Assembly: GCA_963821765.1 (NCBI GenBank)
Contig: CAWGFF010000010.1
Span: 95,400 to 159,399 of the forward strand
DNA length: 64,000 bases
Direction: 5' to 3'
DNA from: an uncultured Acidobacteriota bacterium
Lineage (GTDB): Bacteria > Acidobacteriota > Terriglobia > Acidiferrales > UBA7541
Shown here one piece after another: positions 45,412 through 64,000 of this stretch (position 1 is the first letter of the stretch; each line of letters begins with the position of its first letter). Both the position numbers and the translations under genes were made by a program. The notes beneath the pieces are model-generated. The model did no database searches. It was not told where the DNA came from and worked only from the letters and a program-made list of their open reading frames with translations.

Positions 45412-47415
45412 ATGGAGGACAACGTGAAGTTTCCTAAGGGCGTCTCGCGACGGCAGTTTGTTTCAGGGATGATGTCGTCGGCTGCGCTGGCGTGTCTTCC
45501 GAAAACGGCGGGCGCCTATGCAGAGAATGCTCCTTTGGAGAACTTGCTGTTGCAGGGCGGGCGACAGCACGGTCCGGAGGGGCGGGTGACGCTGCTGGCC
45601 GAGCCGTTCCCCATGATTCAAGTGCGTCTGCTGGATGGACCGTTCCTCGATGCCACGAAGTTGAATTTGCAATATCTGCGTTCGCTGCCAGTTGATCGGT
45701 TGGTGCACAATTTTCGCGTGAATGCGGGACTGGCGAGTACGGCGGAGCCTTTGGGGGGCTGGGAAGCTCCGGACTGCGAACTGCGCGGACATTTTACGGG
45801 GCATTTTCTTTCGGCGTGCGCGCTGGGGTACGCGAGTACCGGCGACGAAGAATTGAAAACGAAGGGCGAGGCGGTGGTGGCGGAGCTGGCGAAGTGCCAG
45901 GAAGCGAAGGGCAACGGATACCTAAGCGCGTTCCCGGAGAGTTTTTTTGACCGATTGAGCGATGGCAAAGGCGTGTGGGCGCCATTCTATACGTTGCACA
46001 AGATTATGGCGGGAAATCTGGACATGTACACGTACTGCCAATCGGAACAAGCCCTGGCCGTGGCGGAGGGAATGGCGCGATGGATGGGTCACTGGACGAA
46101 TGGCATCAGTGACGATCACATGCAGCGGATCTTGAAGACGGAGTACGGCGGGACGAACGAGGCGCTTTATAACCTGAGCGCGATTACCGGAAAGTGGCAA
46201 TATTTTCGGACCGCGACGCGATTCGAGCAGCCGGATTTCTTCGGGCCTCTGGCGGGACATCGAGACGAGCTCAAGGGTCTGCACACGAATACCAATATTC
46301 CCAAGGTGATTGGCGCGGCGCGGCGGTATGAATTGACCGGTGTTCCCTACTACCATGAGGTTTCGAAGTATTTTTGGGAAGAAGTGACGCAAGAACGGGC
46401 GTACGTGACGGGCGGCACGAGCAATGGCGAAGGATGGGACACGGACGCGGGGAATTTATCGAAGGCGCTGAGCTTATGGTCGGAAGAATGCTGCTGCGGC
46501 TACAACATGTTGAAATTGACGCGCCACGTGCATCAATGGAGCGCGGATCCGCGCTACATGGATTATTACGAGCGGACGCTGTTTAATTCCCGACTGGGGA
46601 CGCAGCATCCGGATAACGGGATGAAGATGTATTATTTCCCGCTGGAGACGGGTTACTGGAAATTTTTCCATTCGCAGTTCAATTCATTCTGGTGTTGCAC
46701 GGGAACAGGAGTGGAAGAATTTTCAAAGTTTACCGATACGATCTATTCGCACAATGAGCGCGATGTGTTCGTGAACCTTTTTATTGCTTCCGAAGTGCGC
46801 TGGCCCGAGAAGGGGCTGAAGGTGCGGCAGACGACGAGTTTTCCCGAGCAGGATGGCACCAGCATCACGGTGAGCGCGGAAGAGCCGGTGCAGGCGGGGA
46901 TCAATATACGAATTCCGAGTTGGGCGGTGGATGGCGGCACGGTCGAGCTGAATGGAAAGCCGTTGCCGGTGTTTTCGAGCCCTGGAAGCTATCTTAGGAT
47001 CACGCGGGAATGGGCGGATGGAGACCAGCTGGAAGTGAAATTGCCGATGCGCTTGCATACAGAGCCGCTGCTGGGGGATCCGACGCAGGTGGCGGCGTTG
47101 TATGGGCCGATCGTGCTGGCGGGACGATTGGGGACCGACGGGCTGACGGAAGCGATGCAATTCGATCCGGATCATGGGCCGACGCAATTGTCTCCACCCC
47201 ATGCGGAAGCGAAGGGCAGCGCAAACATTTTCGCAAAGTCCGGTGAAGAAATTCGCGCGGCAGCTTGGGTGGAACCCGTGAAGGGGCAGCCGCTGAGTTT
47301 TCAGACCGTGGGCCAGAAAAATGCGACGATGTTGATACCGCTGAATCGAATCTTCGGGGAACGTTACGCGGTGTACTGGAAGACGAGCACGCGAAGCGAA
47401 GACGCGGACGGCTAG
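45412..47415 (+). CDS. glycoside hydrolase family 127 (beta-L-arabinofuranosidase, HypBA1-like), Tat-exported
   Basis: Tat motif SRRQFVSGMMSSAALA. Motifs seen: GHFTGHFLSA, YTLHKIMAG, VTGGTSNGEGW, ECCCGYNMLKL, FWCCTGTGVE (Cys-rich GH127/DUF1680 motifs). Confidence 0.8.
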   Translation: MEDNVKFPKGVSRRQFVSGMMSSAALACLPKTAGAYAENAPLENLLLQGGRQHGPEGRVTLLAEPFPMIQVRLLDGPFLDATKLNLQYLRSLPVDRLVHNFRVNAGLASTAEPLGGWEAPDCELRGHFTGHFLSACALGYASTGDEELKTKGEAVVAELAKCQEAKGNGYLSAFPESFFDRLSDGKGVWAPFYTLHKIMAGNLDMYTYCQSEQALAVAEGMARWMGHWTNGISDDHMQRILKTEYGGTNEALYNLSAITGKWQYFRTATRFEQPDFFGPLAGHRDELKGLHTNTNIPKVIGAARRYELTGVPYYHEVSKYFWEEVTQERAYVTGGTSNGEGWDTDAGNLSKALSLWSEECCCGYNMLKLTRHVHQWSADPRYMDYYERTLFNSRLGTQHPDNGMKMYYFPLETGYWKFFHSQFNSFWCCTGTGVEEFSKFTDTIYSHNERDVFVNLFIASEVRWPEKGLKVRQTTSFPEQDGTSITVSAEEPVQAGINIRIPSWAVDGGTVELNGKPLPVFSSPGSYLRITREWADGDQLEVKLPMRLHTEPLLGDPTQVAALYGPIVLAGRLGTDGLTEAMQFDPDHGPTQLSPPHAEAKGSANIFAKSGEEIRAAAWVEPVKGQPLSFQTVGQKNATMLIPLNRIFGERYAVYWKTSTRSEDADG

Positions 47416-47539
47416 GTTCGGGTCGCGCCGCGAGTGACGTTTTTTCGAACGCGCTTTGCACTGAGATTTCTTGGGCCAAACGTTGACGGATCAGCCATGG
47501 GAGCGGATCATACGTCGCACGCGTCACCGGAGATGAGAA

Positions 47540-48592
47540 GTGAGCATCCACGAAGTTGCAAAGTTGGCCAAGGTTTCCATTGCGACAGTGTCGCGCACCA
47601 TTAATGGCGTGCCGACCGTAACGCCGCAGCTTTCTCGCCGCGTGTGGAAAGTGATCGAAGAGCTGGGATATTACCCGAACACACAGGCACGCGCGCTGGT
47701 TTCCGGACGCAGCCGGATTTTCGGTTTGATCGTTTCGGAAATCACCAACCCGTTCTTTCCGGAAATTGTGCAGGGATTCGAGGACATCGCGGTTCAGAAT
47801 AATTACGAGATTCTAACGACTTCCACGGTGCACGACCCGGCGCGGATGGCACTTTCCGTGCGTCGGATGATCGAGCGACGAGTGGAGGGCGTGGCGGTCG
47901 TCACGTTCGGGATGGAAGAAGCGCTGTTCGATGATTTGAAATCGCGCAACGTGCCGCTGGTGTTTATTGATGTGGGGCCGCCGCTGCCGCGGATCAGCAC
48001 GATCAAGATTGATTACTTGAACGGACTGCGGCAGGCGGTGCAACATCTGGCGGCGCTGCGGCACGAAAAAATCGCTTTTATTTCCGGACCGCTGACGCTC
48101 AAGACGGCCCAGGCGCGACAGCATGCGTTCATGCAAGCAATGGGCGAAATTGGGCTGCGCGTGGATCCGCAGCACCTAGTGGAAGGAAATCACACGATGG
48201 AGGGCGGCATCGCGGCGATGCAGAAACTTTTGGCGCACGTCGAAAGTCCGACAGCGGTGATTTGCTCGAATGACATGACGGCGCTGGGCGTGATGCGCGA
48301 GAGTTATGCGCAGGGGATTCATGTGCCCAAGGAACTCTCCGTCGTGGGGTTTGACGACATCCGGCTGGCGCAATTCGTGATACCGCCTTTGACCACGGTA
48401 AAAATGTCGCAAGCAGAAATTGCCCGCCTGGCATTCAACGCGCTTCTGGCGGAGGTGCGGCGTAAGTCTCCTTCTCCGACGGGAAGCGAATACATGCTCC
48501 GCACCAGCCTGGTCCTTCGTGATTCCACCGCCCTGGCTCCGAAGACAGCGCGCAAGCGAAAACCCAAAGCCGCCAACTCCGGCGGTGAGTGA
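47540..48592 (+). CDS. LacI-family transcriptional regulator
   Basis: GTG start. N-terminal HTH IHEVAKLAKVSIATVSRTINGVPTV and a periplasmic-binding-fold C-domain. Confidence 0.9.
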   Translation: MSIHEVAKLAKVSIATVSRTINGVPTVTPQLSRRVWKVIEELGYYPNTQARALVSGRSRIFGLIVSEITNPFFPEIVQGFEDIAVQNNYEILTTSTVHDPARMALSVRRMIERRVEGVAVVTFGMEEALFDDLKSRNVPLVFIDVGPPLPRISTIKIDYLNGLRQAVQHLAALRHEKIAFISGPLTLKTAQARQHAFMQAMGEIGLRVDPQHLVEGNHTMEGGIAAMQKLLAHVESPTAVICSNDMTALGVMRESYAQGIHVPKELSVVGFDDIRLAQFVIPPLTTVKMSQAEIARLAFNALLAEVRRKSPSPTGSEYMLRTSLVLRDSTALAPKTARKRKPKAANSGGE

Positions 48593-48829
48593 ACCAATTG
48601 AAAGCATTGATTTGAAGCGCCGTGGACGATCATGCCTAGACTCGCGAGTTCGGCGGGAATACGCGCGTACCAGGCTGTTTGGCGCGTGATTCTTGCGAGG
48701 AAACGTCTGCTGCGGCGCGGGCACTGTGGTTTTTTGTAAGTCAGTGGGGACGCAAGCACGGTTGGGGTGCGTTATTTGAGCTGGGACATGTACTGGCACG
48801 AAAATTAACACTTAGAGGCGCAGATTTTT

Positions 48830-50431
48830 ATGGCGATCGTCGCAGGCGTGGATTTCGGAACATTGAGTGTTCGCGTTTCGATCGTGGACAGCGAGAAGGG
48901 CACGCTGGAATCCGCGGTGGCTGAATATCCTTTGCATCGCAAACGCGAGGACCCGGAATTTGCGACGCAATCCCACGAAGATCACATGCGAGCGCTGGCA
49001 GCGGCGACGCGCGAGGCGTTGAAGAAGGCGGGAGTGCGCGGCGAGGACGTGCAGGCGATCGCGCTGGATACGACGGGATCTTCGGTGGTGCCGGTGGATG
49101 CGAAGATGGTCCCGCTGGACGATTATTATTTGTGGTGCGACCATCGCGCGAAGAAGGAAGCGGCGGAAATTACCGAACTGGCGAACCGCGAAGGATTGGA
49201 AGCGATTCGCTGGTGCGGTGGCGTTTATTCCTCGGAATGGGGTTTCGCGAAGCTACTGCATTGGCTGCGGCACAATCCCGAGAAGCGCGGGAAATTCGCC
49301 AGCGCGTTCGAGCATTGCGACATGGTGGCGGCCACGCTCTGCGGCGTTGCCGATCCGAGCAAGGCGAAACGCAGCATTTGCGCGATGGGACACAAATGGT
49401 TGTGGCATGCGGATTTGGGCGGGCTGCCGTCGGAAGATTTTTTGGTGAAATTGGATCCACTGCTGGCGGGAGTGCGCGCGAAACTCGCGGGGCAGTACGA
49501 GACTTCGGACAAAATTGCCGGGACATTGTCTCCGTACTGGGCGGAAAAGTTGGGATTGCACGCGGGAATTCCTATTCCAGTGGGCGCGTTCGACGCGCAT
49601 TGGGACGCGATCGGCGCGGGCACGCAAGAAAAAGATGTGGCGAATGTGGTGGGGACATCCACTTGCATTATCGGAATCTCAAGCCAGACTCAGTTGGTGC
49701 CAGGAGTTTGCGGTGTCGTGCAGGGCAGCGTGCATCCCGGTTATACGGGGATCGAGGCGGGGCTTTCCGCCACTGGAGATATTTTCGAAGCGATCGCGCG
49801 GCGGGCAAACACTTCCATTTCGCAATTGAGTGTCGGACTGGAGAAGTATCGCGCTGGCCAAACGGGCTTGCTGCGCATGACTTGGGACAATGGCGACCGG
49901 ACCGTGCTTGTGAATCCGAATCTGCGCGGGATGACGCTGGGGTGGAACCTGCAGAATAGCGCGCAGGATGAACTTTTTGCGGCGATCGAGGGAACGGCGT
50001 TTCACACGCGTGTGATTCTGGACCGCATGGCGGAATATGGCACGAAGATCGAACGCGTGATCAATGCTGGCGGGATTCCGCAGAGCAATCCAGTTTTGAA
50101 TCAAGTGTACGCGAACGTGCTGGGGCGGCCGGTGCTGGTGCCGAGCAAAAAAGTGACGAGCCTGGGGTCCGCGATTTTTGCGTTTTTGGCGGCCGGGACG
50201 TTTAAGACGATCGAAGAGGCGCAGAAGCAGATTTGTCCGTCACACATCGTGTTTCATCCGCAAAAGGATGCGCAAGGAATTTACGATGAGTTGTACGGGT
50301 TGTACCGGAGATTGTATTTCGAATTTGGCGGAGCGGCGGGCGGCGGGAGTTTTGCCGATGTGTTGCCCGCGCTGATCCGGATATCCGCCAGTCAAATGTC
50401 GCGCGCGCACACGGCGGAAAAAGCGAATTAG
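48830..50431 (+). CDS. araB: ribulokinase (FGGY family)
   Basis: MAIVAGVDFGTLSVRVSIVD...LDTTGSSVVPVD...LWCDHRAKKEAAEIT...GGVYSSEWGFAKLLH is colinear with enterobacterial AraB as I remember it. 533 aa. Confidence 0.75.
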   Translation: MAIVAGVDFGTLSVRVSIVDSEKGTLESAVAEYPLHRKREDPEFATQSHEDHMRALAAATREALKKAGVRGEDVQAIALDTTGSSVVPVDAKMVPLDDYYLWCDHRAKKEAAEITELANREGLEAIRWCGGVYSSEWGFAKLLHWLRHNPEKRGKFASAFEHCDMVAATLCGVADPSKAKRSICAMGHKWLWHADLGGLPSEDFLVKLDPLLAGVRAKLAGQYETSDKIAGTLSPYWAEKLGLHAGIPIPVGAFDAHWDAIGAGTQEKDVANVVGTSTCIIGISSQTQLVPGVCGVVQGSVHPGYTGIEAGLSATGDIFEAIARRANTSISQLSVGLEKYRAGQTGLLRMTWDNGDRTVLVNPNLRGMTLGWNLQNSAQDELFAAIEGTAFHTRVILDRMAEYGTKIERVINAGGIPQSNPVLNQVYANVLGRPVLVPSKKVTSLGSAIFAFLAAGTFKTIEEAQKQICPSHIVFHPQKDAQGIYDELYGLYRRLYFEFGGAAGGGSFADVLPALIRISASQMSRAHTAEKAN

Positions 50432-50440
50432 TTTGATTTC

Positions 50441-50461
50441 GGCGGCATCCTGCCTTTTTTT
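50441..50461 (+). terminator. weak intrinsic terminator candidate after araB
   Basis: ggcgg cat cctgcc (5-bp stem with one G-U pair) followed by T7. Confidence 0.35.
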
Positions 50462-50578: not shown

Positions 50579-51262
50579 ATGACGCGGATTTGCTGCGCTG
50601 CATTACTTTTTGATATGGATGGGGTGCTGGTGGATTCGACGCCGGCGGTGGCGCGCGTTTGGACGCGTTGGGCTGCGCGGCACGGATTTGACGCTGCGGA
50701 AGTGGTGCATCGGGCGCACGGGCGGCCGAGCATCACCACGGTGCGCGAGTACCTGCCGAACGGCGATCATCTCGGCGAAAATCAGCAAATTGAGCAGGAC
50801 GAGGTCACGGACCTGGACGGAGTGGTGCCGCTGCCAGGGACGCGGGAACTGTTGAGCGCTCTGCCACTCGGACGGTGGACGATCGTGACATCGTGCTCGC
50901 GGCGTCTGGCGGAAGTGCGATTGAAGGCCAGCGGATTGCCGCGGCCGGATGTTTTTGTTACGTCGAGCGACATCACGAACGGCAAGCCGGCCCCGGATGC
51001 TTATCTGAAGGGAGCGGAGGTGCTGGGGTTTGCGCCGCAGGATTGCGTAGTGGTGGAGGATGCGCCGGCGGGTGTGAGTTCGGGGAAGGCTGCGGGTGCG
51101 CGCGTGATTGCGTTGCGCACTACGATGCCGAAGGCAGAATTGTGGGATGCTGGCGCGGATTGGGTGGTGCGGGATTGCTCCGCGATCGGGCTTAATATCC
51201 CTGGGATCCGCGACGGGAAGCTCTCGCTGATCCTGCAGAAGGACGGCGCGCACGATTCGTAG
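50579..51262 (+). CDS. HAD-IA family hydrolase (sugar-phosphate phosphatase / beta-phosphoglucomutase-like)
   Basis: LLFDMDGVLVDS (DxD motif I), TSCSR, KPAPD, VVVEDAPAGVSSGKAAG. Confidence 0.8.
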   Translation: MTRICCAALLFDMDGVLVDSTPAVARVWTRWAARHGFDAAEVVHRAHGRPSITTVREYLPNGDHLGENQQIEQDEVTDLDGVVPLPGTRELLSALPLGRWTIVTSCSRRLAEVRLKASGLPRPDVFVTSSDITNGKPAPDAYLKGAEVLGFAPQDCVVVEDAPAGVSSGKAAGARVIALRTTMPKAELWDAGADWVVRDCSAIGLNIPGIRDGKLSLILQKDGAHDS

Positions 51263-51305: not shown

Positions 51306-52910
51306 CTAGGAATGCAGCGTCAGTACGGTTAGCGAGTGCGCGGCGAACGTTTGACGGAATGCCGGCGCGGCTCCAGAAAATGAGCTGCGTTTCACGCCCA
51401 CGTTTTTCGGCTCGGCGAACGTGTTCGTCGAATCCAGGCTCGGGCCGTTTACCTCGTATAGATCTCCCGCAGGCTGCAATTTAAATCCTTCGATGCCGAT
51501 GTCCGCGGCTATATCCGACGTCGGATGCCGATTTACGATGGCGAGAGTCAGTTTTTGGCCGTTGTCGTCCGTGGTTGCCGAGACGTCCAGGTATGGCGTG
51601 TCGGGCATGTCCGGGAAAGTATCGGAGCGCACGAAAGCGTCTAGCGCGACGTTGCCGGAATGTTGGGCGTAGAGCTGCAGCGGAAAATAAATCGTCTGGA
51701 GGACGATTCCTGTCGAATTGGCCATGATCGGCGCGATCACGTTTACAAGTTGTGCGAGATCGGCCATCTGCACCGTGCGGCAGTTGCGATGAAAGATGTT
51801 GAGCGCGGAGGCGGCCCAGAGGGCATCGCGCAGATTGTAAATTTCCTCGAGCTTGTGATCGTCGCCGCGCTTGAACCAAGAGCGGAACCAGATGTTCCAT
51901 TCGTCGGCCGCGATTTTGACCCGTTCCTTCTTTTCATTTTTGCCGGCGACGGAAGTGATTACGGCGTCGAGTACCTTTATTTCGTGCTCGAGTTTGCTGG
52001 CGTCGTGAATTTCCTTGGCTGTGTCGGTGCTGCCCCCGTAGTGATGCAGAGAAATGTAATCCACCACGTCCACCAGGCGTTCCAGGACCTGGCGGTCCCA
52101 ATCAGCATTATTTCCGCCACAGGCGACGAGTTTGATAGTGGGATCCACCCACTGCATCATCTTGGCGAATTCCAGCGCGAGGTCGGCGTAGGCTGTGGCG
52201 GTTTTGTGGCCGGCTTGCCAAGAGCCGTAAATTTCGTTCCCCAAGCCCCAATATTTGACGTTGTAGGGTTCCGGATGGCCATTTTTTCTGCGCAGGTTGG
52301 CCCAAGCGGTGTTCATCGTGCCGTTGCAATATTCCACCCAGTCCGCGGCATCCTGCATGGTGCCGGTGCCCATATTCACCGTGATGTACGGCTCAGAGCC
52401 GAGCTTGCGACAATATTGGATGAATTCGTCGGTGCCGAAGCGGTTGGATTCTTCGGCTTGCCACGCAGTGTCCCAACGGCGCGGACGAGAAGCTTTCGGG
52501 CCAACACCGTCTTTCCAATTGTAGCCGGAAGAAAAATTTCCACCGGGCCAGCGCAGGAGAGGAATGTTCAGGCCACGCGCGGCTTCCAGAACGTCCTTGC
52601 GAAAACCGTCACTATCGGAGAGCGGCGAGCCTTCTTCGTAAATTCCACCATAGATGCAGCGGCCGAGATGTTCGATGAAGTTGCCGTAGATGTTGCGGTC
52701 GATCTTGCCGATCTGGCGATCGAGATCAATTTTGATGCGGGCGCTGGCTGCAGGCGCCGGAGCTTGCGGCGCAGTCGCGGCCGCGGCTTTAGCTGTTGCG
52801 GATTTGTTGACGAGCGGCGAAGAGGAAATTAGAGGGAACGCAGCGGCACCGAGCGCCGCGGCCATGCCATCCTTCAGGAAATTGCGTCGTGCGGAGAGCT
52901 TGATGGTCAT
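51306..52910 (-). CDS. abfA: alpha-L-arabinofuranosidase, GH51, Tat-exported
   Basis: I prefer ATG 52910 (MTIKLSARRNFLKDGMAAALGAAAF Tat signal, GGAGA RBS). Motifs seen: NIYGNFIEHLGRCIYGGIY, LRWPGGNFSSGYNWKDGVGP, YWGLGNEIYG, ADEWNIW. Confidence 0.85.
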   Translation of the reverse strand: MTIKLSARRNFLKDGMAAALGAAAFPLISSSPLVNKSATAKAAAATAPQAPAPAASARIKIDLDRQIGKIDRNIYGNFIEHLGRCIYGGIYEEGSPLSDSDGFRKDVLEAARGLNIPLLRWPGGNFSSGYNWKDGVGPKASRPRRWDTAWQAEESNRFGTDEFIQYCRKLGSEPYITVNMGTGTMQDAADWVEYCNGTMNTAWANLRRKNGHPEPYNVKYWGLGNEIYGSWQAGHKTATAYADLALEFAKMMQWVDPTIKLVACGGNNADWDRQVLERLVDVVDYISLHHYGGSTDTAKEIHDASKLEHEIKVLDAVITSVAGKNEKKERVKIAADEWNIWFRSWFKRGDDHKLEEIYNLRDALWAASALNIFHRNCRTVQMADLAQLVNVIAPIMANSTGIVLQTIYFPLQLYAQHSGNVALDAFVRSDTFPDMPDTPYLDVSATTDDNGQKLTLAIVNRHPTSDIAADIGIEGFKLQPAGDLYEVNGPSLDSTNTFAEPKNVGVKRSSFSGAAPAFRQTFAAHSLTVLTLHS

Positions 52911-53118
52911 TGCAGTGTCTCCATTTTCGCCGCGCACCGTTTGCAGGGATTCGGAGGACGAACTGCATCCACAGCCGAATCGTTGGCTGGTGCGCGGCAC
53001 GAGTATCTATGAGAAAACGTTTACTCGTCAACCAGGGATTGTGAAATTCGTGATTTCTCATGAGGGAGGAACCGCTTGGCCACGATGGACGACGAGGCGG
53101 GACGGCGGGATGGCAAGG

Positions 53119-55788: not shown

Positions 55789-56712
55789 TTACCTTGCGGC
55801 TTGCGCTAGAGCTGAGCTCGCATTCTTTGGGCGATTGTGAATGGCGTGACGAATTACTTTTTTGGTGGCTTCTAATTCTTCGCCGATGAGCTCCAGTTTT
55901 GGGGCACGGACTCGCGCGTTGCCGATACCAAGGTCCTGCTGAACCAACTTTATCAGCTGAACAAATTTGGGCACTGTGTCAAGGCGCAGCAGCGGCAAGA
56001 ACCAACAATACAGTTCGAACGCCTGCGCGGATTTTCCTTCCATGCCGTAAGTGAACAGGTCCACGGATTCGCGCGGCAGAGCGTTGGCGAGACCGGCGAT
56101 CCAACCAGTGGCGCCGACTCCGATGCCTTCGAGTATTGCGTCGTCTACGCCGATAAATAAAACCAGGCGATCGCCGATGAGGGCGCGAATCGCGCTGACT
56201 CTGCGCACATCCGTGCTCGATTCCTTCACGGAATGCAAATTCTGGTGCTCGTTTGCGAGTTCCTGAATTTGCTCCGGCAGAAAATCGGTACCGTACGAGA
56301 CAGGATTATTGTACAGCATGCAGGAAAGCGGAGTGGCTTTCAGAACGGCAGCGACGTGGGCTTTCATTTCGCGCCAGTCGCCCTTGTAAACATAGGGCGG
56401 AAGAACCATGAGGCCTTCGCATCCTGCGGATTCCGCAACTTTGGCTTGCGCGATGGCGTCGGCTGTGGAGAGCGCGGAAATCGCAGCGACCACGGGAGCG
56501 CGACCTTTCAAGGCGCCCACGCAATTGCGCAGAATCGAGACCTTTTCATCGAATGACAGTGTGGCTCCTTCGCCCAGCGAGCCGAGTGCGACTACCCCGG
56601 TGCAGCCATTTTCAACCAGCCAGCGGCAGTGATTGGCCATGAAGTTGTGGTCAACTTTTCCGTTTGGATCGAAACACGTGGTGATTGCGGGCATTACGCC
56701 TGTCCACTTCAT
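55789..56712 (-). CDS. DHDPS/NAL-family enzyme, probable 1-pyrroline-4-hydroxy-2-carboxylate deaminase (LhpC-like)
   Basis: ATG 56712 with GGAGGA RBS. MKWTGVMPAITTCF...GCTGVVALGSLGEGATLS...YNNPVSYG. The function is assigned from context. Confidence 0.65.
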   Translation of the reverse strand: MKWTGVMPAITTCFDPNGKVDHNFMANHCRWLVENGCTGVVALGSLGEGATLSFDEKVSILRNCVGALKGRAPVVAAISALSTADAIAQAKVAESAGCEGLMVLPPYVYKGDWREMKAHVAAVLKATPLSCMLYNNPVSYGTDFLPEQIQELANEHQNLHSVKESSTDVRRVSAIRALIGDRLVLFIGVDDAILEGIGVGATGWIAGLANALPRESVDLFTYGMEGKSAQAFELYCWFLPLLRLDTVPKFVQLIKLVQQDLGIGNARVRAPKLELIGEELEATKKVIRHAIHNRPKNASSALAQAAR

Positions 56713-56725
56713 CAGAATCCTCCGT

Positions 56726-58006
56726 TTAATTTCGTGGCGCGGAACGCGATGGAATTGCCGCCAGGCTCGAACAACGTACGGGAAAGAGCGGCGGGCGGAC
56801 GGAATCAATCTGCCAACCGAAAAGAAATTCAGCAGCGGGCGCGCAAACGCGTCCCTGGCAGGGACCCATGCCGCAGCGGGCGTGCAATTTGGCAGCGCGC
56901 CAGGACGCGTGTTCGCACAAGCGTTCGTGCGAGACGTCTTCGCAACGGCAGACTAGCGTGTCTGGGCGCGCGAGATTTTTCAGCTCGGGGCGCAAAAGGA
57001 ATGCTTCTTGCAGTATGCGAACAACTTTTTGGTAGCGGGCGCGCTTGGCGAATAGATGCTTGGCGCGATCTTCCCAATTTGTCGCGGCGTATCCGGCGAT
57101 CTCGCCTTCGACGAGCGCGAGCTCAAGGCCGCCAATTCCGGTGGGTTCGCCGGCGCAGAATATTCCGGGGACGGAGGTTTGCTGAAACTCGTCCACTTGT
57201 ACAAAGTTTTCGTGGAGATCGCATCCGCACATGCGTGGGAGCTCGACGTTGGGAATGAGATGAAAGCCGCAAGCGAGATAGTCACATTCGATTTCGCTGG
57301 TTTGTCCTTGGCGCCAAATGCGCACGGTTTCAACGCGGCGATTTCCGAAGGCGGCGACCGGCCAACAATCGGTCCAGTGCGGAATGCCGCGAAGCTCGTG
57401 GGCGAAGCGCATAGCCTCTGCAGCTTTTCCTGGGATGAGCATCATTTTCAGCCCGAAGCGCGCCATCCGCGAGCGAGAAGTCTGCTCGCAAATGCCAATC
57501 ACTTTCGCGCCACATTTGCGTGCGTAGGCGGCGACTGCGAGAAGTAGCGGGCCCGTTCCGGCGATGACGATGCGCTTTCCGGATATATCGAGGCCGGATT
57601 TTACGAGGGCTTGCAGGCCGCCCGCCCCCATGACGTTCGGAAGAGTCCAGCCCGGGAAGGGAAGGAAAAGTTCCCGAGCGCCGGTGGCGAGAATTAATTT
57701 TCCATAGCCGATTTGAATCGCGGAGTCGTCGGATTCGGCGGCGAGTTCGCCTTTCGCGGCGTGAAAGACACGCGCGCCGCGAACAATTTGAACCGCGGAT
57801 TTATTCAGGCGATCAAACCAGGTTTGTGATGCCGAGGGCCGGGCGGAGCTGCACGCGGCGCGCCAAATTTGCCCACCGGCGGCGGGATTGTCGTCAATTA
57901 ATCCGACGGTGCGGCCGGAATCGGCGGCCGCTAGCGCCGCGGCGATTCCCGCGGGACCTGCGCCGACGACGGCGACGTCGAATCTTAGGTGTTTGACGCT
58001 ATCCAT
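56726..58006 (-). CDS. FAD/NAD(P)-binding oxidoreductase, D-hydroxyproline dehydrogenase alpha-subunit-like (LhpE/HcnB/opine oxidase A type)
   Basis: FDVAVVGAGPAGIAAALAAADSG plus a second Rossmann motif RIVIAGTGPLLLAVAAY. Confidence 0.7.
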   Translation of the reverse strand: MDSVKHLRFDVAVVGAGPAGIAAALAAADSGRTVGLIDDNPAAGGQIWRAACSSARPSASQTWFDRLNKSAVQIVRGARVFHAAKGELAAESDDSAIQIGYGKLILATGARELFLPFPGWTLPNVMGAGGLQALVKSGLDISGKRIVIAGTGPLLLAVAAYARKCGAKVIGICEQTSRSRMARFGLKMMLIPGKAAEAMRFAHELRGIPHWTDCWPVAAFGNRRVETVRIWRQGQTSEIECDYLACGFHLIPNVELPRMCGCDLHENFVQVDEFQQTSVPGIFCAGEPTGIGGLELALVEGEIAGYAATNWEDRAKHLFAKRARYQKVVRILQEAFLLRPELKNLARPDTLVCRCEDVSHERLCEHASWRAAKLHARCGMGPCQGRVCAPAAEFLFGWQIDSVRPPLFPVRCSSLAAIPSRSAPRN

Positions 58007-58244
58007 TGGCTTCTATTTCCATATTCGCTTCGCAAAGAACCTGGCAACTGCGGCGCTGCGATTCTCCGTTGATTGCGACGCGGCATTCGAAGCAGGTGCC
58101 CATGCCGCAGAGAGGCGAGCGCGGCTGACCGGTCACCGACGCGCGGCAAGTTGCGCCGGAAGCGAGCACAGCGACAGCAACAGTGGCGCCGGCGCGCACA
58201 GTGACGAGTTTTCCATTGACGCGGACGGAGACGGATTCAGACAT
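57999..58244 (-). CDS. small (2Fe-2S)-binding subunit (LhpF/HcnA-like)
   Basis: ATG 58244 gives 81 aa: MSESVSVRVNGKLVTVRAG...PRSPLCGMGTCFECRVAINGESQRRSCQVLC. It has 8-nt overlaps with both neighbours. Confidence 0.7.
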   Translation of the reverse strand: MSESVSVRVNGKLVTVRAGATVAVAVLASGATCRASVTGQPRSPLCGMGTCFECRVAINGESQRRSCQVLCEANMEIEANG

Positions 58245-59364
58245 GGGCCTCCGCAGCCATTTGTCGCGACGGCAGATAAGGCTGAATGGGAATTGCGGGA
58301 CGCTGGCCGAGAATTTGCGCGCAGGCAAGTTTCGCTGTGGCGAGCGAGGTGGTGATGCCCAAGCCTTCGTGGCCGGCCGCAACTAAAACGGATGGGTCCT
58401 GTGGCGACGGGCCGATTAATGGGAGTTTATCGGGAGTGGCGGGGCGGAAGCCAGTCCACACGCGAATCGCCGAGAGAGAATTCAGGTCTGGCATGTATTC
58501 GAAGGCGCGTTGCAACATGCGCGAGAGAATGGATTCGTCCACGGCCGAATTTTCCGCACCGTATTGGCGTGACGAGCCGATTAGAATTTGGCCGCTTTTA
58601 CGGGGCTGCACGTTGAAGGCGACGGAATCGGCGGTGAGGGAGTGCGCGCTTTTCAGATAGCCGAGTTCGACGACCTGATGATGGAGGAAATTCGGATGAC
58701 GATCGGTGATGACCAGGTGGCCTTTGCGCGGTTTGATATTGATGCCGGGGCTGAGCTTCGGGGCGGATTGGCCGGCGGCGTTGATTATGAAGCCAGCCGC
58801 GAAAACGGTGCCGTCGGCGAGACGCGCGGCGCCTTTTCCGATTGCGGCGACTGGTTGGCCCTGAATGACGCGAGCTCCCAAGGCGCGAGCCTTCTGCAAC
58901 AAAAATTCCGCAGCGCACGGAGGGTAAATTACCGAATCTCCCGGCACGCGAAGACCGCCCGCAAGCGGCGTACGAAGGTGAGGTTCGGCATCGCGAACCT
59001 GCCGCGAATCGAGGATTTCCGCGTTTACGCCACGTTCGCGGTAATAATCAAATTTTCGGCTGACTTCGCGCATTTCGTCTTCATCGGCGGCCACCCACAG
59101 CGTGCCGCACGGGTCGAATTCAACGGACGCGGGAAGCTGATCGCGCAAATCGTCCCAGAGAATTTGCGAATAGCGCGTGATGGCAAATTGCGCTTCGGAA
59201 TCGTCCATTACCACGATGTGGCCCATGGCGGCACCAGTGGAGCCAGCGCTGGGAAATCCTTCGTCGATCACCAGAACGCGCAGGCCCTCCAAAGAGAGTT
59301 CCAGCGCGCAGGCGGCGCCGACGATACCGGCGCCGACAATAACAGCATCGGCGGGCTTGTTCAC
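58237..59364 (-). CDS. FAD-dependent oxidoreductase (DAO family), D-hydroxyproline dehydrogenase beta-subunit-like (LhpB)
   Basis: GTG start with a GTGA overlap onto the upstream stop. ADAVIVGAGIVGAACALELSLEGLRVLVID. Confidence 0.75.
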   Translation of the reverse strand: MNKPADAVIVGAGIVGAACALELSLEGLRVLVIDEGFPSAGSTGAAMGHIVVMDDSEAQFAITRYSQILWDDLRDQLPASVEFDPCGTLWVAADEDEMREVSRKFDYYRERGVNAEILDSRQVRDAEPHLRTPLAGGLRVPGDSVIYPPCAAEFLLQKARALGARVIQGQPVAAIGKGAARLADGTVFAAGFIINAAGQSAPKLSPGINIKPRKGHLVITDRHPNFLHHQVVELGYLKSAHSLTADSVAFNVQPRKSGQILIGSSRQYGAENSAVDESILSRMLQRAFEYMPDLNSLSAIRVWTGFRPATPDKLPLIGPSPQDPSVLVAAGHEGLGITTSLATAKLACAQILGQRPAIPIQPYLPSRQMAAEAHV

Positions 59365-60353
59365 GGGTAGATGCCATTACGAAAGGGATCGCGGGGGTCG
59401 AGAATCACATCCGCCTCCGATGTGATGAACGCGGAGCCTTTGATAATGGGCAGCACTTGGCCGTCCTCAATGCGAACTTGTCCTTCAAAAACGCTGCCGA
59501 CAATGCTTTCCTGACGCCAGACTTCGCCGGGTTTCAATTTTCCGTCAGCGTAGAGGCATGCGAGCTTGGCACTGGTGCCCGTGCCGCAGGGTGAACGGTC
59601 GTACGCTTTTCCAGGGCAGAGCACAAAATTCTGGCTTTGAATACCGGGTTTGCGCGAGGGACGAAATAATTCGACGTGGTCAATTTCTTTGCCGTCGGAG
59701 CCGGTGATGCCATTGGTCGCCAACGTCTGGCGAATGGCCCACGTAAATTCCGTCAACTTTTCAATATTTGCGGAATTCAACTCCACAGGATTATTGTTCA
59801 CCAGGAAAAACCAATTGCCGCCCCAGGCGACATCGCCGCTGACCGCGCCGTAACCCGGCACCTGGACCGTGACATCGGCAGCGGTGCGTTTGCTGGCGAC
59901 GTTAACGACGGTGACTTCGCCGGTCTCATGTAGAGTCGCGGTAACAGTGCCCACAGGCGTTTCGATGCGGTGATCGCCGTAGGTGATTCTCCCCAAGTAT
60001 GCGAGCGTGGTTACCAAGCCAATCGTGCCGTGCACACACATGCCGAGATATCCAACATTGTTGAAGAAAATTACTCCCGCGGCACTGGCCGGATCGGCAG
60101 GCTTGCAGAGGATTCCACCGACGACGACTTCGGAACCGCGCGGTTCGTTGGCGAGTGCGCTGCGGAGGTAATCGTGGTCGAGGCGAAAGCGTTCCATTTG
60201 CTTGGCGACGGAACCGCCGCCGAGGTCTGGGGCGCCGCTGACAACGATTCTGGTGGGCTCGCCACCGGTGTGAGAGTCAACGATATGAATACGCTCGACG
60301 GCGTCGAACATGTTCGCGGGGCTATTTTCAACACGTGGTTTGGTAAGACTCAT
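59361..60353 (-). CDS. 4-hydroxyproline 2-epimerase (proline racemase family, Cys/Cys type)
   Basis: IHIVDSHTGGEPTRIV. The first catalytic motif is GMCVHG and the second is DRSPCGTGTSAKLA. The start could instead be the internal Met at 60311. Confidence 0.75.
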   Translation of the reverse strand: MSLTKPRVENSPANMFDAVERIHIVDSHTGGEPTRIVVSGAPDLGGGSVAKQMERFRLDHDYLRSALANEPRGSEVVVGGILCKPADPASAAGVIFFNNVGYLGMCVHGTIGLVTTLAYLGRITYGDHRIETPVGTVTATLHETGEVTVVNVASKRTAADVTVQVPGYGAVSGDVAWGGNWFFLVNNNPVELNSANIEKLTEFTWAIRQTLATNGITGSDGKEIDHVELFRPSRKPGIQSQNFVLCPGKAYDRSPCGTGTSAKLACLYADGKLKPGEVWRQESIVGSVFEGQVRIEDGQVLPIIKGSAFITSEADVILDPRDPFRNGIYP

Positions 60354-61082
60354 GAGCAGGCTATCCGCTCCTCACACGGGACGCGAGTTTCGAACATGCA
60401 TTATTGCGTCTGACAGCAGACATTTGCGAGCGAAAATGCGGGGAGGAAGGGAGCAAGTACCAGGGAAAGTTGGTAAGGAGAAACTGAGGGTGCCCGGAAG
60501 AAGGAATCCGAAAAATGGAAGGAGGGAGTTTAAGTGCTTTGGATTCGTGGATGAGAGAAATGGGCATTGACGGGCAGCGGTGCATATAATATACATCGTG
60601 GGGATGCTAGGCAACCAAAAAAGGCAATGTGGGCTGAAAACGTTTACCGCGATTGGTACTGTTCGCGGAACGCGATAGGGTTTTTCCCAGTGCTTTCCGC
60701 AATTTACGGGCATCGGACGCGCTAGAAAGTAACGTGGATTACGCGGTCGAATATCTTTTTGTCGCGCGGCACGAGGGTACGGCGACCGGCGATCCGGTTC
60801 CGGCTGCGAACGGGTTGCAGTGCTTTGCGAAATGGCCAGGGCGCCGTGGCCACCCCGATGGCTTCGGGTGCCAGCAAGGAGGATGACGGGAACGGCAGAG
60901 CTTCCCCGGCCGCCCTTCCCAAAATCCTTCAGGTCGAATCGGGAACATGGTGGCTGGGCCGTCAGTGCTTGTTCGCGGGCTTAACAAATGCAGGCGGGCA
61001 TGATTAAAAAGTTTCGCATTGTACACAAACGAAGCGCCGCTAAGTTGTCCTGTGAAAACACCTCGCCGGAGGAACAAGTAAA

Positions 61083-63389
61083 ATGAAGCCCAGTTTCCGC
61101 GGATGGATTTTGGCTGCGATATTTTTCGTGTCCGCTGCAGCGCCGGCGAACGCGCAAGGCACACTCGCGGACTATCAGCGCGCCGAAAAATTCCTGCCCG
61201 GGAATTTGCGTCATCAGATTTACGTGGCGGATGTGACGCCGCACTGGATCGAGAAGGCCAGCCGCTTCTGGTATAGGAAGGCGGGGCCGCGCGGAACGGA
61301 ATTCATACTGGTGGATCCGGCGCAGAATACCAGCGCGCCTGCATTTGATCACGCGAAGCTGGCGGCGTCGCTCACGCGCGCGACGAAGCGGGAATATGCA
61401 GCTGCGCAGCTACCGTTCGACGGTTTCGAGTTCGCGAAGGATGGCCAATCCATTAATTTTCAATTGGAAGGCGCGGCGTGGACCTGCACTTTGGAGAAGT
61501 ACAACTGCAAGAAGTCCAGCGATACGCAACCTGGACCCTATGAAGATTTTTCTCCGAACGGGGCATGGGCCGCTTACGTGAAGGATCACAACCTTTACGT
61601 GCGCGACGTTTCCACTGGCTCTGTGCAACAAATTACGCGTGATGGCGAGGCGGGTTGGGACTATGCGACGCCGATTCCTTCGCTGCGGCCGATGGTGGCG
61701 CAAGGAACCGACGATGTAAAACAGCGCCCGGCGGTTTTCTGGTCGCCGGATTCATCGAAGCTGGTTACGTACCGGCTGGATTCGCGCAATGCGGGGCATT
61801 TCACGACGCTGCAGTTCGTTCCGCCGAATCAACTTCGGCCGAAGGCGTACGACGTGGTGTATCCGCTGCCGGGCGAGTCGTTGCCTACGGCCGAGCCGAT
61901 AATATTCGACGTTCCCTCGGGGAAGCGGACGGACATTAAGACCGCGCCGCTGGAAATTCGATTTCAGGGCGGGCCGGGTTTCGACTGGTATCCGGGCGGT
62001 AAGGGCATTTTTTACGACTACAGCGAGCGTGGAGAGAAGGCGATCGAATTTCGGGAAGTGGATCCAGAGACTGGCGGGCAGCGAGTGCTGGTCCGAGAAC
62101 AATCGAACCTCTATGTGGATCCGGGCGAGACCTTTTTTCGATTTGCGCACGAAAGCGGCGAGGTTGTGTGGACTTCGGAACGCGACGGCTGGAATCATTT
62201 GTATCTTTCTAGCGCAAAAACCGAGCAATTGATCAATCAGGTGACGCAGGGGCCGTGGGTGGTGCGGCAAATACTCTTTGTGGATGAAAAGGCCCGGCGA
62301 GTTTATTTTTCGGGATGCGGGCGCGAGAAGGACGAAGATCCCTATCTGATGCATGTCTACAGCGTGGGATTTGACGGTAAGGGACTGACGCTGCTAACGC
62401 CGGAAAATGCGAATCACATGGCGAGTGTGTCACCGGATGGCGCGTATTTTGTGGACAGTTATTCGCGGGCGGATTTGCCGGGGAAGGCGGTGCTGCGGCG
62501 CACTAAGGACGGCTCGGAAGTACGCGTGCTGGAGGAGACTGACGCTGCCGAGTTGCTGAAGACCGGCTGGAAATATCCTGAGCCTTTTCACGGAAAGGCC
62601 GCGGATGGCTCGACCGATCTATACGGATTGATTTGGCGACCTTCAAATTTCGATCCAGCGAGGAAATATCCAATCGTCGAGCAGGTGTACACCGGGCCGC
62701 AGGGATTTTTTGTTCCGAAATCGTTTGGGCAGGCGAACCGCGGCGGTCTGCAATCAGTTGCGGAATTGGGATTTATCGTGGTGATGGTGGATGGACGCGG
62801 GACGACGGGGCGCTCGCGCGCGTTTCACGAATACTCGTACCGAAATTTGGGCGGATCGTTTGAAGATCATGTGGCGATGATCAAACAGATGGCGGCGCGC
62901 TACCCGTACATGGATATCGAGCGCGTGGGAATATGGGGAACTTCGGCGGGCGGTTACGGTGCGGCGCACGCGATGCTGGTGTTTCCGGAATTTTACAAAG
63001 TGGGAGTGACAATTTCCGGAGATCACGACGCGCGGCTGGATAAGGCGTGGTGGAACGAGCTGTATCAGGGATACCCGCTGCAAGAGAACTACGTCGCGCA
63101 ATCGAATGTGACCATGGCCGGGAAGTTGCAGGGGCATTTGCTGATCGTGCACGGCGATATTGATGACAATGTGCATCCCGTGGAGTCGATGCGTTTTGTG
63201 GACGCTTTGATGAAGGCGAATAAGAACTTTGACATGCTTTTCGTGCCGAATATGTATCACGGAGAAGGCGGCAATCTCTACTTGATCCGGCGGCGATGGG
63301 ATTATTTCGTGGAGTATTTGTTGGGAGTGACGCCGCCGAGTGGATTTGAAATTCATGAGGATCGGGAGGAGCCTGCGCGCGGCCGTTGA
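61083..63389 (+). CDS. S9B dipeptidyl-peptidase IV-type (X-Pro) serine peptidase, secreted
   Basis: Signal peptide MKPSFRGWILAAIFFVSAAAPANA. DPP-IV-type N-propeller (FSPNGAWAAYVKDHNLYVRDVSTG...ITRDG). Catalytic GIWGTSAGGYG, HGDIDDNVH, MYHGEG. Confidence 0.8.
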   Translation: MKPSFRGWILAAIFFVSAAAPANAQGTLADYQRAEKFLPGNLRHQIYVADVTPHWIEKASRFWYRKAGPRGTEFILVDPAQNTSAPAFDHAKLAASLTRATKREYAAAQLPFDGFEFAKDGQSINFQLEGAAWTCTLEKYNCKKSSDTQPGPYEDFSPNGAWAAYVKDHNLYVRDVSTGSVQQITRDGEAGWDYATPIPSLRPMVAQGTDDVKQRPAVFWSPDSSKLVTYRLDSRNAGHFTTLQFVPPNQLRPKAYDVVYPLPGESLPTAEPIIFDVPSGKRTDIKTAPLEIRFQGGPGFDWYPGGKGIFYDYSERGEKAIEFREVDPETGGQRVLVREQSNLYVDPGETFFRFAHESGEVVWTSERDGWNHLYLSSAKTEQLINQVTQGPWVVRQILFVDEKARRVYFSGCGREKDEDPYLMHVYSVGFDGKGLTLLTPENANHMASVSPDGAYFVDSYSRADLPGKAVLRRTKDGSEVRVLEETDAAELLKTGWKYPEPFHGKAADGSTDLYGLIWRPSNFDPARKYPIVEQVYTGPQGFFVPKSFGQANRGGLQSVAELGFIVVMVDGRGTTGRSRAFHEYSYRNLGGSFEDHVAMIKQMAARYPYMDIERVGIWGTSAGGYGAAHAMLVFPEFYKVGVTISGDHDARLDKAWWNELYQGYPLQENYVAQSNVTMAGKLQGHLLIVHGDIDDNVHPVESMRFVDALMKANKNFDMLFVPNMYHGEGGNLYLIRRRWDYFVEYLLGVTPPSGFEIHEDREEPARGR

Positions 63390-63438
63390 CAGCCCGAGGT
63401 AATCGATAAGCGCTCGCCGTTTTCGACGCCCCGAGTGT

Positions 63439-64000
63439 TCATTCTGCTCTGCCCCAGATGTCTCCTACTGTGTAGCCGGTCGGAAACGGATCGTCGGAAT
63501 CGAGGACGTATTGCGCGATGCCGGTGATCCAAGCGCTGCCGCTAATTGTGGGAACTACGGCGGGGTAGGGGCCGACGCGCTTTTCGGCGATCAGACGGCC
63601 GGTGAAAGTCGTGCCGAGGATTCCTTCGTGCACAAAATCCTGATGCAGCGGCAGCTTGCCTTTGGCGTGAAGCGTGGCCATTTTTGCGCAGGTTCCGGTA
63701 CCGCAGGGCGAACGATCGAGTGCGCCGGTCCACGAAGCGGGCCGCTTCCAATCTAGTTTGCCCGTGGAGACGATTACGGTGTTCTTGCAGTCGGAGCGCG
63801 GATGGTCCCCAGGCGCGGAAAGTTGGGCAATGGTGATGCCTGCGATGGCGGAATTTTCCGGATGAACCGCGCGGAGTTGTTCATTTGCGGCGGCTTTGAT
63901 CATTTCGGCGACGCGGACGATGTCGCGCGCGTCGTCTGGGGTTAGATGGAAGCCCAGAGGCGCGGAGTCGGCGATGACGTAGAACATGCCGCCGTAGGCG
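63439..64000 (-). CDS. proline racemase-family protein, C-terminal part (gene continues beyond window end)
   Basis: DRSPCGTGTCAKMATLHAKGKL...GSAWITG. The frame stays open upstream of the track Met (…AYGGMFYVIAD). Confidence 0.75.
   Translation of the reverse strand, partial: AYGGMFYVIADSAPLGFHLTPDDARDIVRVAEMIKAAANEQLRAVHPENSAIAGITIAQLSAPGDHPRSDCKNTVIVSTGKLDWKRPASWTGALDRSPCGTGTCAKMATLHAKGKLPLHQDFVHEGILGTTFTGRLIAEKRVGPYPAVVPTISGSAWITGIAQYVLDSDDPFPTGYTVGDIWGRAE

Follow-up and report, generated by a model that had tools for sequence, protein, structure and literature searches.

Within a 64,000-nucleotide stretch of an uncultured Acidobacteriota genome (contig CAWGFF010000010.1, positions 95,400 to 159,399; G+C ~58%), the whole of which is called the window here, we report a locus in which genes for the release and use of L-arabinose adjoin an operon for the degradation of trans-4-hydroxy-L-proline (hereafter Hyp) and a gene for an X-Pro dipeptidyl peptidase. 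With moderate confidence, we favor the view that the two modules are functionally linked and would serve the use of arabinosylated, Hyp-rich glycopeptides of the extensin type. This view draws on domains, export signals, catalytic motifs, operator motifs and recurrent synteny, from which the substrates, activities and regulator-operator pairs are deduced. An earlier note on this DNA had proposed a single system for plant hydroxyproline-rich glycoproteins (HRGPs), and Pfam and NCBIfam searches recovered every gene that it named, between 40.9 and 64 kb of the window:

40931-44884, + strand: TonB-dependent receptor of 1317 aa (PF25183, E 1e-118; PF13620), with CarboxypepD_reg and OMP_b-brl_4 domains, of acidobacterial type
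45412-47415, + strand: predicted GH146-type beta-L-arabinofuranosidase (PF07944 and PF20736), twin-arginine translocation (Tat) motif SRRQFV
47540-48592, + strand: LacI-family repressor (Pfam/NCBIfam)
48830-50431, + strand: L-ribulokinase AraB (NF003154, 557.6 bits against a cut-off of 428)
50579-51262, + strand: HAD-IA sugar phosphatase, YfbT-like (Pfam/NCBIfam)
51306-52910, - strand: GH51 alpha-L-arabinofuranosidase (PF06964, PF22848), Tat motif ARRNFLK
53284-54018, - strand: GntR/FCD regulator, presumed HypR (Pfam/NCBIfam)
54175-55776, - strand: aldehyde dehydrogenase (ALDH), presumed alpha-ketoglutaric semialdehyde (KGSA) dehydrogenase, which is its best NCBIfam match, far under cut-off
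55789-56712, - strand: protein of the dihydrodipicolinate synthase (DHDPS) family, presumed delta1-pyrroline-4-hydroxy-2-carboxylate deaminase (Pfam/NCBIfam)
56726-58006, - strand: D-hydroxyproline dehydrogenase subunit, Pyr_redox_2 (Pfam)
57999-58244, - strand: D-hydroxyproline dehydrogenase subunit, Fer2_4 (Pfam)
58237-59364, - strand: D-hydroxyproline dehydrogenase subunit, DAO (Pfam)
59361-60353, - strand: 4-hydroxyproline 2-epimerase HypE (NF052296, 420 bits against a cut-off of 450), with a Cys/Cys pair
61083-63389, + strand: DPP-IV-type (S9B) X-Pro dipeptidyl peptidase, Sec signal peptide (Porphyromonas gingivalis DPP-IV, E 5e-66)
From 63439 and past the window end at 64000, - strand: second gene of the proline racemase superfamily (Pfam)

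The GH146, LacI, araB and HAD genes follow one another on the + strand, and GH51 comes next on the - strand, downstream of and co-directional with the hyp operon and its GntR gene. The six hyp genes (HypE, DAO, Fer2_4, Pyr_redox_2, DHDPS-like and ALDH) are co-directional and overlap or lie 12-13 bp apart. The catalytic cysteines of HypE stand in MCVHG and SPCGTG motifs, and its scores of 420 and 418 bits fall just under cut-offs of 450 and 442. Genes for D-Hyp dehydrogenase, a DHDPS-family deaminase and KGSA dehydrogenase sit with the epimerase, as in the epimerase route of Hyp degradation; these three activities were assigned by Pfam alone, no equivalog model reaching its cut-off. GH51 has both the catalytic and the C-terminal family 51 domains, with an ArfA model match (E 1e-141, 473 bits) under its cut-off of 625. 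The nearest structures to the peptidase are the DPP-IV enzymes of P. gingivalis, Bacteroides thetaiotaomicron and Stenotrophomonas. Full-length orthologs of the second racemase-family gene have a Ser/Cys active-site pair; its top NCBIfam model, below cut-off, is a 3-Hyp dehydratase and its PDB neighbors are mixed, while published work on one Ser/Cys cluster showed 4-Hyp epimerase activity that extends to 3-Hyp. The gene may thus encode either a 4-/3-Hyp epimerase or a 3-Hyp dehydratase. Taken together, the claims of an upstream TonB receptor, a Tat-exported GH51, a LacI regulator with ribulokinase and HAD phosphatase, a full trans-4-hydroxy-L-proline gene set with its GntR regulator, and a DPP-IV-type peptidase with a second racemase-family gene were all borne out.

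Because GH146 and GH51 carry Tat signals and DPP-IV a Sec signal, all three should act in the periplasm, behind the receptor, which is the proposed importer of arabinosylated oligosaccharides or glycopeptides. The receptor signal peptide is at M38 of the open reading frame (ORF), and GH146 has a possible alternative start 4 codons downstream of 45412. Between receptor and GH146 lies a 527-bp gap whose sole ORF has no Pfam match, and an adjacent SusC/SusD pair, as in the polysaccharide utilization loci of Bacteroidota, was not found there.

The first enzyme of the arabinose module had been described as a Tat-exported GH127, of which the Tat export stood and the family did not. Scored against solved structures, it matches BT0349, the founder of GH146 (5OPJ; E 6.7e-101, 342 bits), and Bll3HypBA1, a bifidobacterial beta-1,3 GH146 (8K7Y/8K7X; E 2.5e-65, ~224 bits), and lies far from the GH127 HypBA1 (3WKW; E 7.7e-10, 41 bits). 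The window enzyme has neither HypBA1 nor the Geobacillus GH127 as its nearest relative and no C-terminal PF20737 domain; a neighbor of the hyp operon in another locus, L087, has both marks of GH127 (HypBA1, E 6e-93; PF20737). The zinc site E-E-C aligns with E-T-C of BT0349 and WCC with WCC, the acid/base Glu of GGTSNGE aligns with that of GGNSVRE, and the cysteine nucleophile and active-site Trp align as well, these zinc, nucleophile and acid/base residues of GH146 being named in PMC10850190. By sequence, the enzyme is a GH146-type beta-L-arabinofuranosidase. This identity would weaken the analogy with HypBA1 and leave the idea of a Hyp-arabinoside substrate standing: two of four characterized GH146 enzymes (XeHypBA1 and Bll4HypBA1) act on Araf-beta1-Hyp, BT0349 cleaves beta-1,2-arabinobiose and was characterized on arabinan oligosaccharides, and Bll3HypBA1 acts on arabinogalactan-protein side chains (PMC10850190).

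We compared the locus with related genomes, using GH51-anchored loci (one genome per species plus six context look-ups; 7 of the 80 loci listed are orthologous) and loci fetched around hyp operons. Close homologs of the window proteins carry the names Candidatus Acidiferrales/Acidoferrales or Terriglobia. The window GH51 protein has an exact match on an independent 10-kb contig. An assembly chimera was considered and rejected, as independent assemblies (L001-L005, L092 and L095) repeat the juxtaposition. The four closest species, with GH51 90-94% identical, keep the hyp operon beside GH51, two of them with a DUF5695 gene in between. The order in L002 and L004 is amino-acid permease, second racemase gene, HypE to ALDH, GntR and GH51, all co-directional; since DPP-IV is absent there between the second racemase gene and HypE, we take it to be an insert in the window. 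An APC-family amino-acid permease precedes the second racemase gene in L002, L004 and L093, and it is from these loci and L095 that the content beyond position 64000 is deduced. The sister species L003 and L005 keep araA, a GH27 and a DUF5695 gene in the locus. Distant relatives show a receptor-SSF-GH146-LacI-araD-araA-araB-HAD series facing GH51, optionally with DUF5695 and aldose epimerase genes, and the HAD gene adjoins GH51 in every orthologous locus. Rearranged versions exist as well: in L087, receptor, TPR gene, GH51 and a true GH127 converge on a complete hyp operon, and in L082 the permease, the second racemase gene (80% identical) and GntR lie beside araA-HAD-GH51.

A scan of soil and peat metagenomes with the window ALDH, neither exhaustive nor random, gave at least 80 loci, in which, as in the other loci fetched, genes were called by a longest-ORF rule. 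These contigs carry no taxonomic assignment; among named loci, Acidobacteriota supply most of their best matches and an Ignavibacteria genome (L041) supplies some. When the ORFs of the loci listed were clustered without labels, the families found beside the hyp genes were PF07944 (nine loci), DPP-IV orthologs (seven), DUF5695 (six), GH27, GH31 and GH51 (five each), and APC permeases and TonB receptors (four each). A Pfam census of 91 neighbor proteins within 8 kb of 24 operons gave PF07944 seven times, DPPIV_N five, GH27 four, and GH31 and GH51 three each, with these families again at the top. The PF07944-positive loci belong to distinct lineages, with ALDH 56-80% identical among them, and three PF07944 subfamilies occur near hyp operons: the short GH146 of the window type, a long BT0349-like GH146 with DUF6805 (adjoining hyp operons in L101, L134, L151 and L152), and true GH127.

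DPP-IV orthologs stand beside hyp operons in L095, L101, L102, L118, L134, L149 and L160. In L102, a GH146-GH27-DPP-IV operon diverges from the hyp operon across 115 bp; ALDH, DPP-IV and GH31 lie in series in L118, as do GH27, DPP-IV and GH31 in L149; ALDH is followed by a receptor and then DPP-IV in L160; and L134 and L152 have DHDPS, ALDH, GH146, a long GH51 and DUF5695 co-directional with gaps of 50-65 bp. In all, glycosidase or peptidase genes adjoin hyp genes in ~10 lineages with differing arrangements, and on this recurrence we judge that the juxtaposition is more than chance. The exact arrangement of the window is genus-level, and the association survives rearrangement elsewhere. Of the expectation that the synteny would hold in related genomes, the part that stood is its repetition in close species and, rearranged, in L087, L082 and the soil loci, while it is absent from six of nine sister lineages: a mixed outcome, on balance favorable.

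Two kinds of operator-like palindromes were found, one LacI-type and one GntR-type:

39914-39925, + strand: LacI-type operator-like site GTAAACGCTTCC, inside the TPR ORF (39181-40395, - strand); role uncertain
40646-40657, + strand: LacI-type (AraR-like) operator GTAAACGCTTAC, in the divergent TPR/receptor intergenic region, 285 bp before the receptor start
45353-45364, + strand: LacI-type operator GTAAACGCTTCC, 59 bp before the GH146 start
53013-53024, - strand: LacI-type operator GTAAACGTTTTC, 103 bp before GH51
60581-60595: candidate HypR (GntR-type) operator TGCATATAATATACA, 228 bp before HypE, overlapping promoter-like -10 boxes on both strands
60636-60647, - strand: LacI-type operator GTAAACGTTTTC, in the divergent HypE/DPP-IV region, 447 bp before DPP-IV and 283 bp before HypE

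The LacI-type palindrome GTAAACGYTTNC has five sites in the window against 0.07 expected; its positions are conserved in every orthologous locus, and 1.15 Mb of unrelated loci contain one match. The LacI gene and this operator are co-conserved in all orthologous loci, as in a LacI/AraR regulon, and the LacI protein (47540-48592) is presumed to be an AraR-like regulator of these sites. The site at 39914-39925 is intragenic, because the TPR Pfam matches start before it. A site like that before the receptor precedes the receptor in L087 and the TPR gene in L098. The GH146 operator is kept in place in L001-L005 and L102, and the GH51 operator, which falls in the spacer of a promoter-like site (TTGACG-18-GATACT), is kept ~100 bp before the gene in L001-L008, L085, L086 and L089.

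We assign the LacI site at 60636 to DPP-IV, because L002 and L004 lack both the site and the peptidase gene, L095 has both, and in L007 such a site precedes an aldose epimerase-DPP-IV pair. A remnant of that epimerase was sought between operator and DPP-IV by homology with L007, and none was found. Direct control of the hyp operon was rejected as the primary role of the site, both because L002 and L004 lack it together with DPP-IV and because a divergent gene of the ara regulon can be identified at the site in L095, L098, L102 and arguably L106; the operator at 60636 may still take part in dual control. A LacI operator is located within the HypE intergenic region of the window and of L095, L098, L102 and L106.

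The GntR-type palindrome, TGnATA-N3-TATnCA, lies just downstream of a TTGAC -35 box before HypE. A single copy stands at the hyp locus of L002, L004, L087 and most of L093-L160, and the metagenome loci listed have 23 sites in 777 kb against 0.3 expected. The sole full copy in the window, at 60581-60595, is separated by 40 bp from the LacI site. Within the window, the receptor, the glycosidases and probably DPP-IV would form a LacI regulon, with the hyp operon under GntR as a regulon of its own. Elsewhere, in other lineages, this operator stands directly upstream of DPP-IV-GH31 (L118), GH27-DPP-IV-GH31 (L149), receptor-DPP-IV (L160) and a divergent DUF5695 pair (L101), and it heads the DHDPS-ALDH-GH146-GH51-DUF5695 operon of L134; direct co-regulation of these hydrolases with Hyp catabolism is therefore predicted. 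Of the claim that the modules make one system, the proposed functional link, with its recurrence across lineages, is retained; the separate regulators and operators of the window do not suit one system of the operon type.

We propose the following path. HRGP fragments would cross the outer membrane through the TonB-dependent receptor; in the periplasm, GH51 would take off terminal alpha-linked L-arabinofuranose and GH146 the beta-linked residues down to hydroxyproline, after which DPP-IV would clip X-Pro and X-Hyp dipeptides from the bared backbone. Arabinose would pass to ribulokinase, with isomerase and epimerase encoded elsewhere. Hydroxyproline would enter by the APC permease, encoded just past the window in sister genomes, and be converted to 2-oxoglutarate by the epimerase, the three-subunit D-Hyp dehydrogenase, the deaminase and KGSA dehydrogenase. 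The LacI-type repressor would act on the receptor, the GH146 operon, GH51 and probably DPP-IV, and the GntR/FCD HypR on the hyp operon. The recurrent GH27 could be accommodated too, as an alpha-galactosidase fits the established Ser-O-alpha-Gal linkage of extensin (see PMC5371791). A beta- and an alpha-arabinofuranosidase, an alpha-galactosidase and an X-Pro peptidase are what Ser(Gal)-Hyp(Ara1-4) extensin repeats would appear to need.

Several results weigh against this link. The window glycosidases have no GntR-type operator upstream, the LacI operator before HypE is missing from sister genomes without DPP-IV, and DPP-IV, present in only some sister genomes, is a lineage-variable insert. Of nine sister lineages with the arabinose module, six have no hyp operon within 10 kb (L006, L007, L085, L086, L089 and L090; sampled group with GH51 62-76% identical), and two loci of the same genus (L093 and L094, ALDH 87-89% identical) keep the hyp operon and have lost GH51 and the ara genes, which argues against a simple conserved locus. 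GH51 and GH146 fit pectic arabinan or arabino-oligosaccharides equally well, and the GH121 and GH43 enzymes of the characterized HRGP systems are absent among the window ORFs and the recurrent neighbors. No arabinose transporter, endo-protease or prolidase was found in the window, and neither araA nor araD anywhere in its 64 kb; of the arabinose catabolism that had been ascribed to the locus, ribulokinase is present and the pathway is incomplete. Neither the metagenome loci nor the GH51-anchored ones are a random sample, and the DHDPS-ALDH pair of L134, which lacks HypE and the dehydrogenase, may serve another pathway. Finally, the enrichment of PF07944, which speaks for the link (9 of the 29 hyp loci flanked by 5 kb or more, compared with 7 of 73 GH51-anchored loci of other phyla; Fisher p = 0.013), has a modest p and a control that is not neutral; as GH51 anchoring should bias the control upwards, the comparison is conservative.

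Part of this evidence would suit two independent neighbors, an AraR-controlled locus for arabinan or arabino-oligosaccharides and L-arabinose beside a HypR-controlled operon for free Hyp, brought together by the clustering of plant-litter genes. The regulators and operator motifs are separate, each module is retained somewhere without the other (the six lineages above on one side, L093 and L094 on the other), the ancestral ara module includes araD, araA, an SSF transporter and an aldose epimerase as in ordinary arabinose loci, and the closest solved relative of GH146, BT0349, was characterized on arabinan-derived oligosaccharides. We nevertheless consider this account rather unlikely, as many lineages show the adjacency, in varied gene orders and with GH127/146 genes of three subfamilies, GH127/146 and DPP-IV are the top neighbor families of the hyp operons listed, predicted HypR operators stand directly before glycosidase, peptidase and receptor genes in other lineages, and no endo-arabinanase (GH43) was seen in any of these loci. 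A metabolic convergence, in which arabinose-releasing genes cluster with a DHDPS-family enzyme and KGSA dehydrogenase that Weimberg-type L-arabinose catabolism shares with Hyp catabolism, could explain why L134, L152 and L122 have a HypR-type operator and then DHDPS-ALDH with no epimerase or D-Hyp dehydrogenase in view, why GH146-GH51 come after that pair in L134 and L152, the receptor-GH51-ALDH series of L129 and SSF-araD-ALDH series of L114, and an ILVD/EDD dehydratase with an MFS transporter beside GH127 in L103. It is nonetheless very improbable: the upper pathway specific to Hyp is complete in the window and most positive loci, the clade's route for arabinose is the phosphorylative araA/araB/araD one, neither arabinose dehydrogenase nor lactonase was seen in these loci, and DPP-IV and GH27 would be left unexplained.

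The functional link might also hold for another source of Hyp, such as arabinogalactan-proteins, HRGPs of mosses or algae, or collagen-like peptides; DPP-IV and the hyp operon would then act on the peptide, and the arabinose genes would be incidental. Side chains of arabinogalactan-proteins are a substrate of the GH146 enzyme Bll3HypBA1, the metagenomes in which the relatives occur are from peat and soil, and the use of collagen would also need DPP-IV and Hyp catabolism; GH27, moreover, is a family that also includes beta-L-arabinopyranosidases. We regard such a source as improbable, since the families that attack the arabinogalactan backbone (beta-galactanases and beta-galactosidases of GH43_24, GH30 and GH35) are not recurrent near the operons, collagen use leaves the glycosidases unexplained, and the recurrent enzyme set matches extensin chemistry best. 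The reading that we favor thus remains a link between the modules for extensin-type glycopeptides. A bolder form of it, which we put forward tentatively, is a dedicated, modular extensin/HRGP system of soil and peat Acidobacteriota in which a Hyp-responsive GntR and an arabinose-responsive LacI regulator would jointly control the receptor, GH146/GH127, GH51, GH27, DPP-IV and the hyp operon, and in which DUF5695, DUF885, GH31 and two proteins at 28210-32412 would be new enzymes for glycoprotein linkages.

The last of these genes belong to a run upstream in the window:

23900-33516: co-directional run of DUF885, GH31, two proteins without a Pfam match (787 and 594 aa; 28210-32412) and a TPR protein
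23927-25728, + strand: DUF885 protein, start at 23927, signal peptide; possible satellite of the locus
25930-28155, + strand: GH31; possible satellite of the locus

A HypR-like palindrome with one mismatch, CGCATATTATATACA, lies at 23900-23914, 13 nt before the DUF885 start; the window GH31 shares 69% identity with the one found after the hyp-DPP-IV genes of L118, and DUF885 adjoins GH146 in L106 and L155. These similarities hint weakly that the DUF885-GH31-TPR run may share the theme of the locus.

DUF5695 proteins of ~930-1070 aa recur by GH51, GH146 and hyp operons (L003 6477-9698; L007 6419-9637; L090 6398-9592; L101 15662-21581, where a HypR-type operator precedes the genes; L134 16688-19471), and the window is without one; we regard them as a candidate new hydrolase family for the substrate of the locus. 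Other peptidases occur beside hyp operons, namely M64 in two lineages (L149 3583-4983 and L139 3220-4644), M64 being the IgA-protease family, which cuts proline-rich hinges, and M1 aminopeptidases in three others. Additional peptidases directed at proline may be encoded in the window itself, 25-30 kb upstream of the hyp operon: a second member of the S9 prolyl-oligopeptidase family (15579-17735), which has PD40 repeats, and, at 17923-19479, an S10-like serine carboxypeptidase.

Members of the window ALDH subfamily are found away from hyp operons too: one directly follows GH51 and a TonB receptor (L129 4790-8121), another araD and an SSF transporter (L114 1258-3850), and others a TonB receptor alone (L141 and L154). 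Oxidation of pentoses or uronates may be a second role of the subfamily. A distant acidobacterial locus, from Vicinamibacterales (L054 4834-16900), brings together a DPP-IV homolog (39% identical), a long GH146, GH51, araB, HAD and LacI, with no hyp genes in view, and is a further case of a peptidase paired with arabinofuranosidases. In L093 (11758-16393) and L094, GntR is followed directly by HAD and then by homologs of window 21-24 kb, GH51 and the counterpart of window 24-50.5 kb being missing, a large deletion or rearrangement that falls exactly at the module junction.

Three paralogous FG-GAP/ASPIC (UnbV) proteins and the TPR protein lie beside the receptor (33665-40395), and the same types are found beside the hyp operon in L098 (1-4980) and beside receptor-GH51-GH127 in L087 (2529-9972); given the LacI-type sites near these genes, they may belong to the arabinose regulon. 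Farther off, and outside the present finding, two giant secreted repeat proteins (672-12847; 1456 and 2302 aa by ORF) carry NHL/teneurin, ASH/Cep192-like Ig, DUF11 and DUF7948 domains. In all 2-kb bins of the window the GC skew is above zero (0.01-0.31), whatever the gene strand, an unusually strong and uniform pattern.

Plant cell walls and litter contain HRGPs as a component rich in nitrogen. To our knowledge, almost nothing is known of their mineralization by soil bacteria, and the only characterized HRGP systems that we know of, those of Bifidobacterium and Xanthomonas, release sugars and stop. If the bolder form of our reading is true, this would be the first locus described in which the deglycosylation of plant cell-wall glycoproteins is coupled to their proteolysis and to the catabolism of Hyp. 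A locus type that joins the removal of arabinosides with cleavage at X-Pro and Hyp oxidation would define a concrete substrate niche for soil Acidobacteriota, which are abundant and poorly understood. It would also supply candidate extensin enzymes (GH146, GH51, GH27 and DPP-IV), possible new activities in DUF5695 and DUF885, and two predicted operator/regulator pairs. Hyp degradation is reported to be enriched in soil Acidobacteriota (PMC11778308), an enrichment that the locus would explain. Each module is known singly, and the literature suggests that the combination has not been published, in agreement with the earlier note: open-access full texts yielded none that joins beta-L-arabinofuranosidases with Hyp catabolic genes, which is absence of evidence and not proof, and a neighborhood study of the proline racemase superfamily has no mention of "glycoside", "arabino" or "DUF1680" and one of "peptidase".

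Among known systems, the hypBA1/hypBA2/hypAA cluster of Bifidobacterium longum (GH127, GH121, GH43 and an ABC transporter) acts on the beta-L-arabinooligosaccharides of HRGPs. Like the system proposed for the window, it pairs an alpha-arabinofuranosidase with a cysteine-nucleophile beta-L-arabinofuranosidase to attack Hyp-linked arabinofuranosides, and it catabolizes the arabinose. The window differs in lacking GH121, in having GH51 in place of GH43 and GH146 in place of GH127, and in its predicted periplasmic enzymes behind a TonB receptor, whereas the bifidobacterial ones are surface-anchored or intracellular; the B. longum cluster has neither a peptidase nor hydroxyproline catabolism. Xanthomonas euvesicatoria offers a Gram-negative counterpart, with XeHypBA1 (XCV2724), an exported GH146 that cleaves Araf-beta1-Hyp, XeHypBA2 (GH121) and XeHypAA (GH43). 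Its authors noted a decayed prolyl oligopeptidase (pseudogene) beside the XeHyp genes; the strain does not use arabinose, and no Hyp catabolic genes were reported in the cluster. BT0349, the closest solved relative of the window enzyme, belongs to the pectic arabinan system of B. thetaiotaomicron and carries at its C terminus a jelly-roll domain (DUF6805), which is absent from the window protein; the window locus has neither a SusD partner nor an endo-arabinanase.

On the Hyp side, the Lhp clusters of Pseudomonas and Azospirillum, the hyp cluster of Sinorhizobium and the HypR cluster of Streptomyces share with the window the epimerase, the deaminase, KGSA dehydrogenase and a GntR/FCD repressor, together with a heteromeric D-Hyp dehydrogenase made of DAO, 2Fe-2S and Pyr_redox_2 subunits. 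The GntR/FCD repressor HypR is known from published work to control Hyp genes in Streptomyces through a different motif from TGnATA-N3-TATnCA. What sets the window and the related soil contigs apart from these clusters is that glycosidases and a peptidase are the commonest neighbors of their hyp genes.

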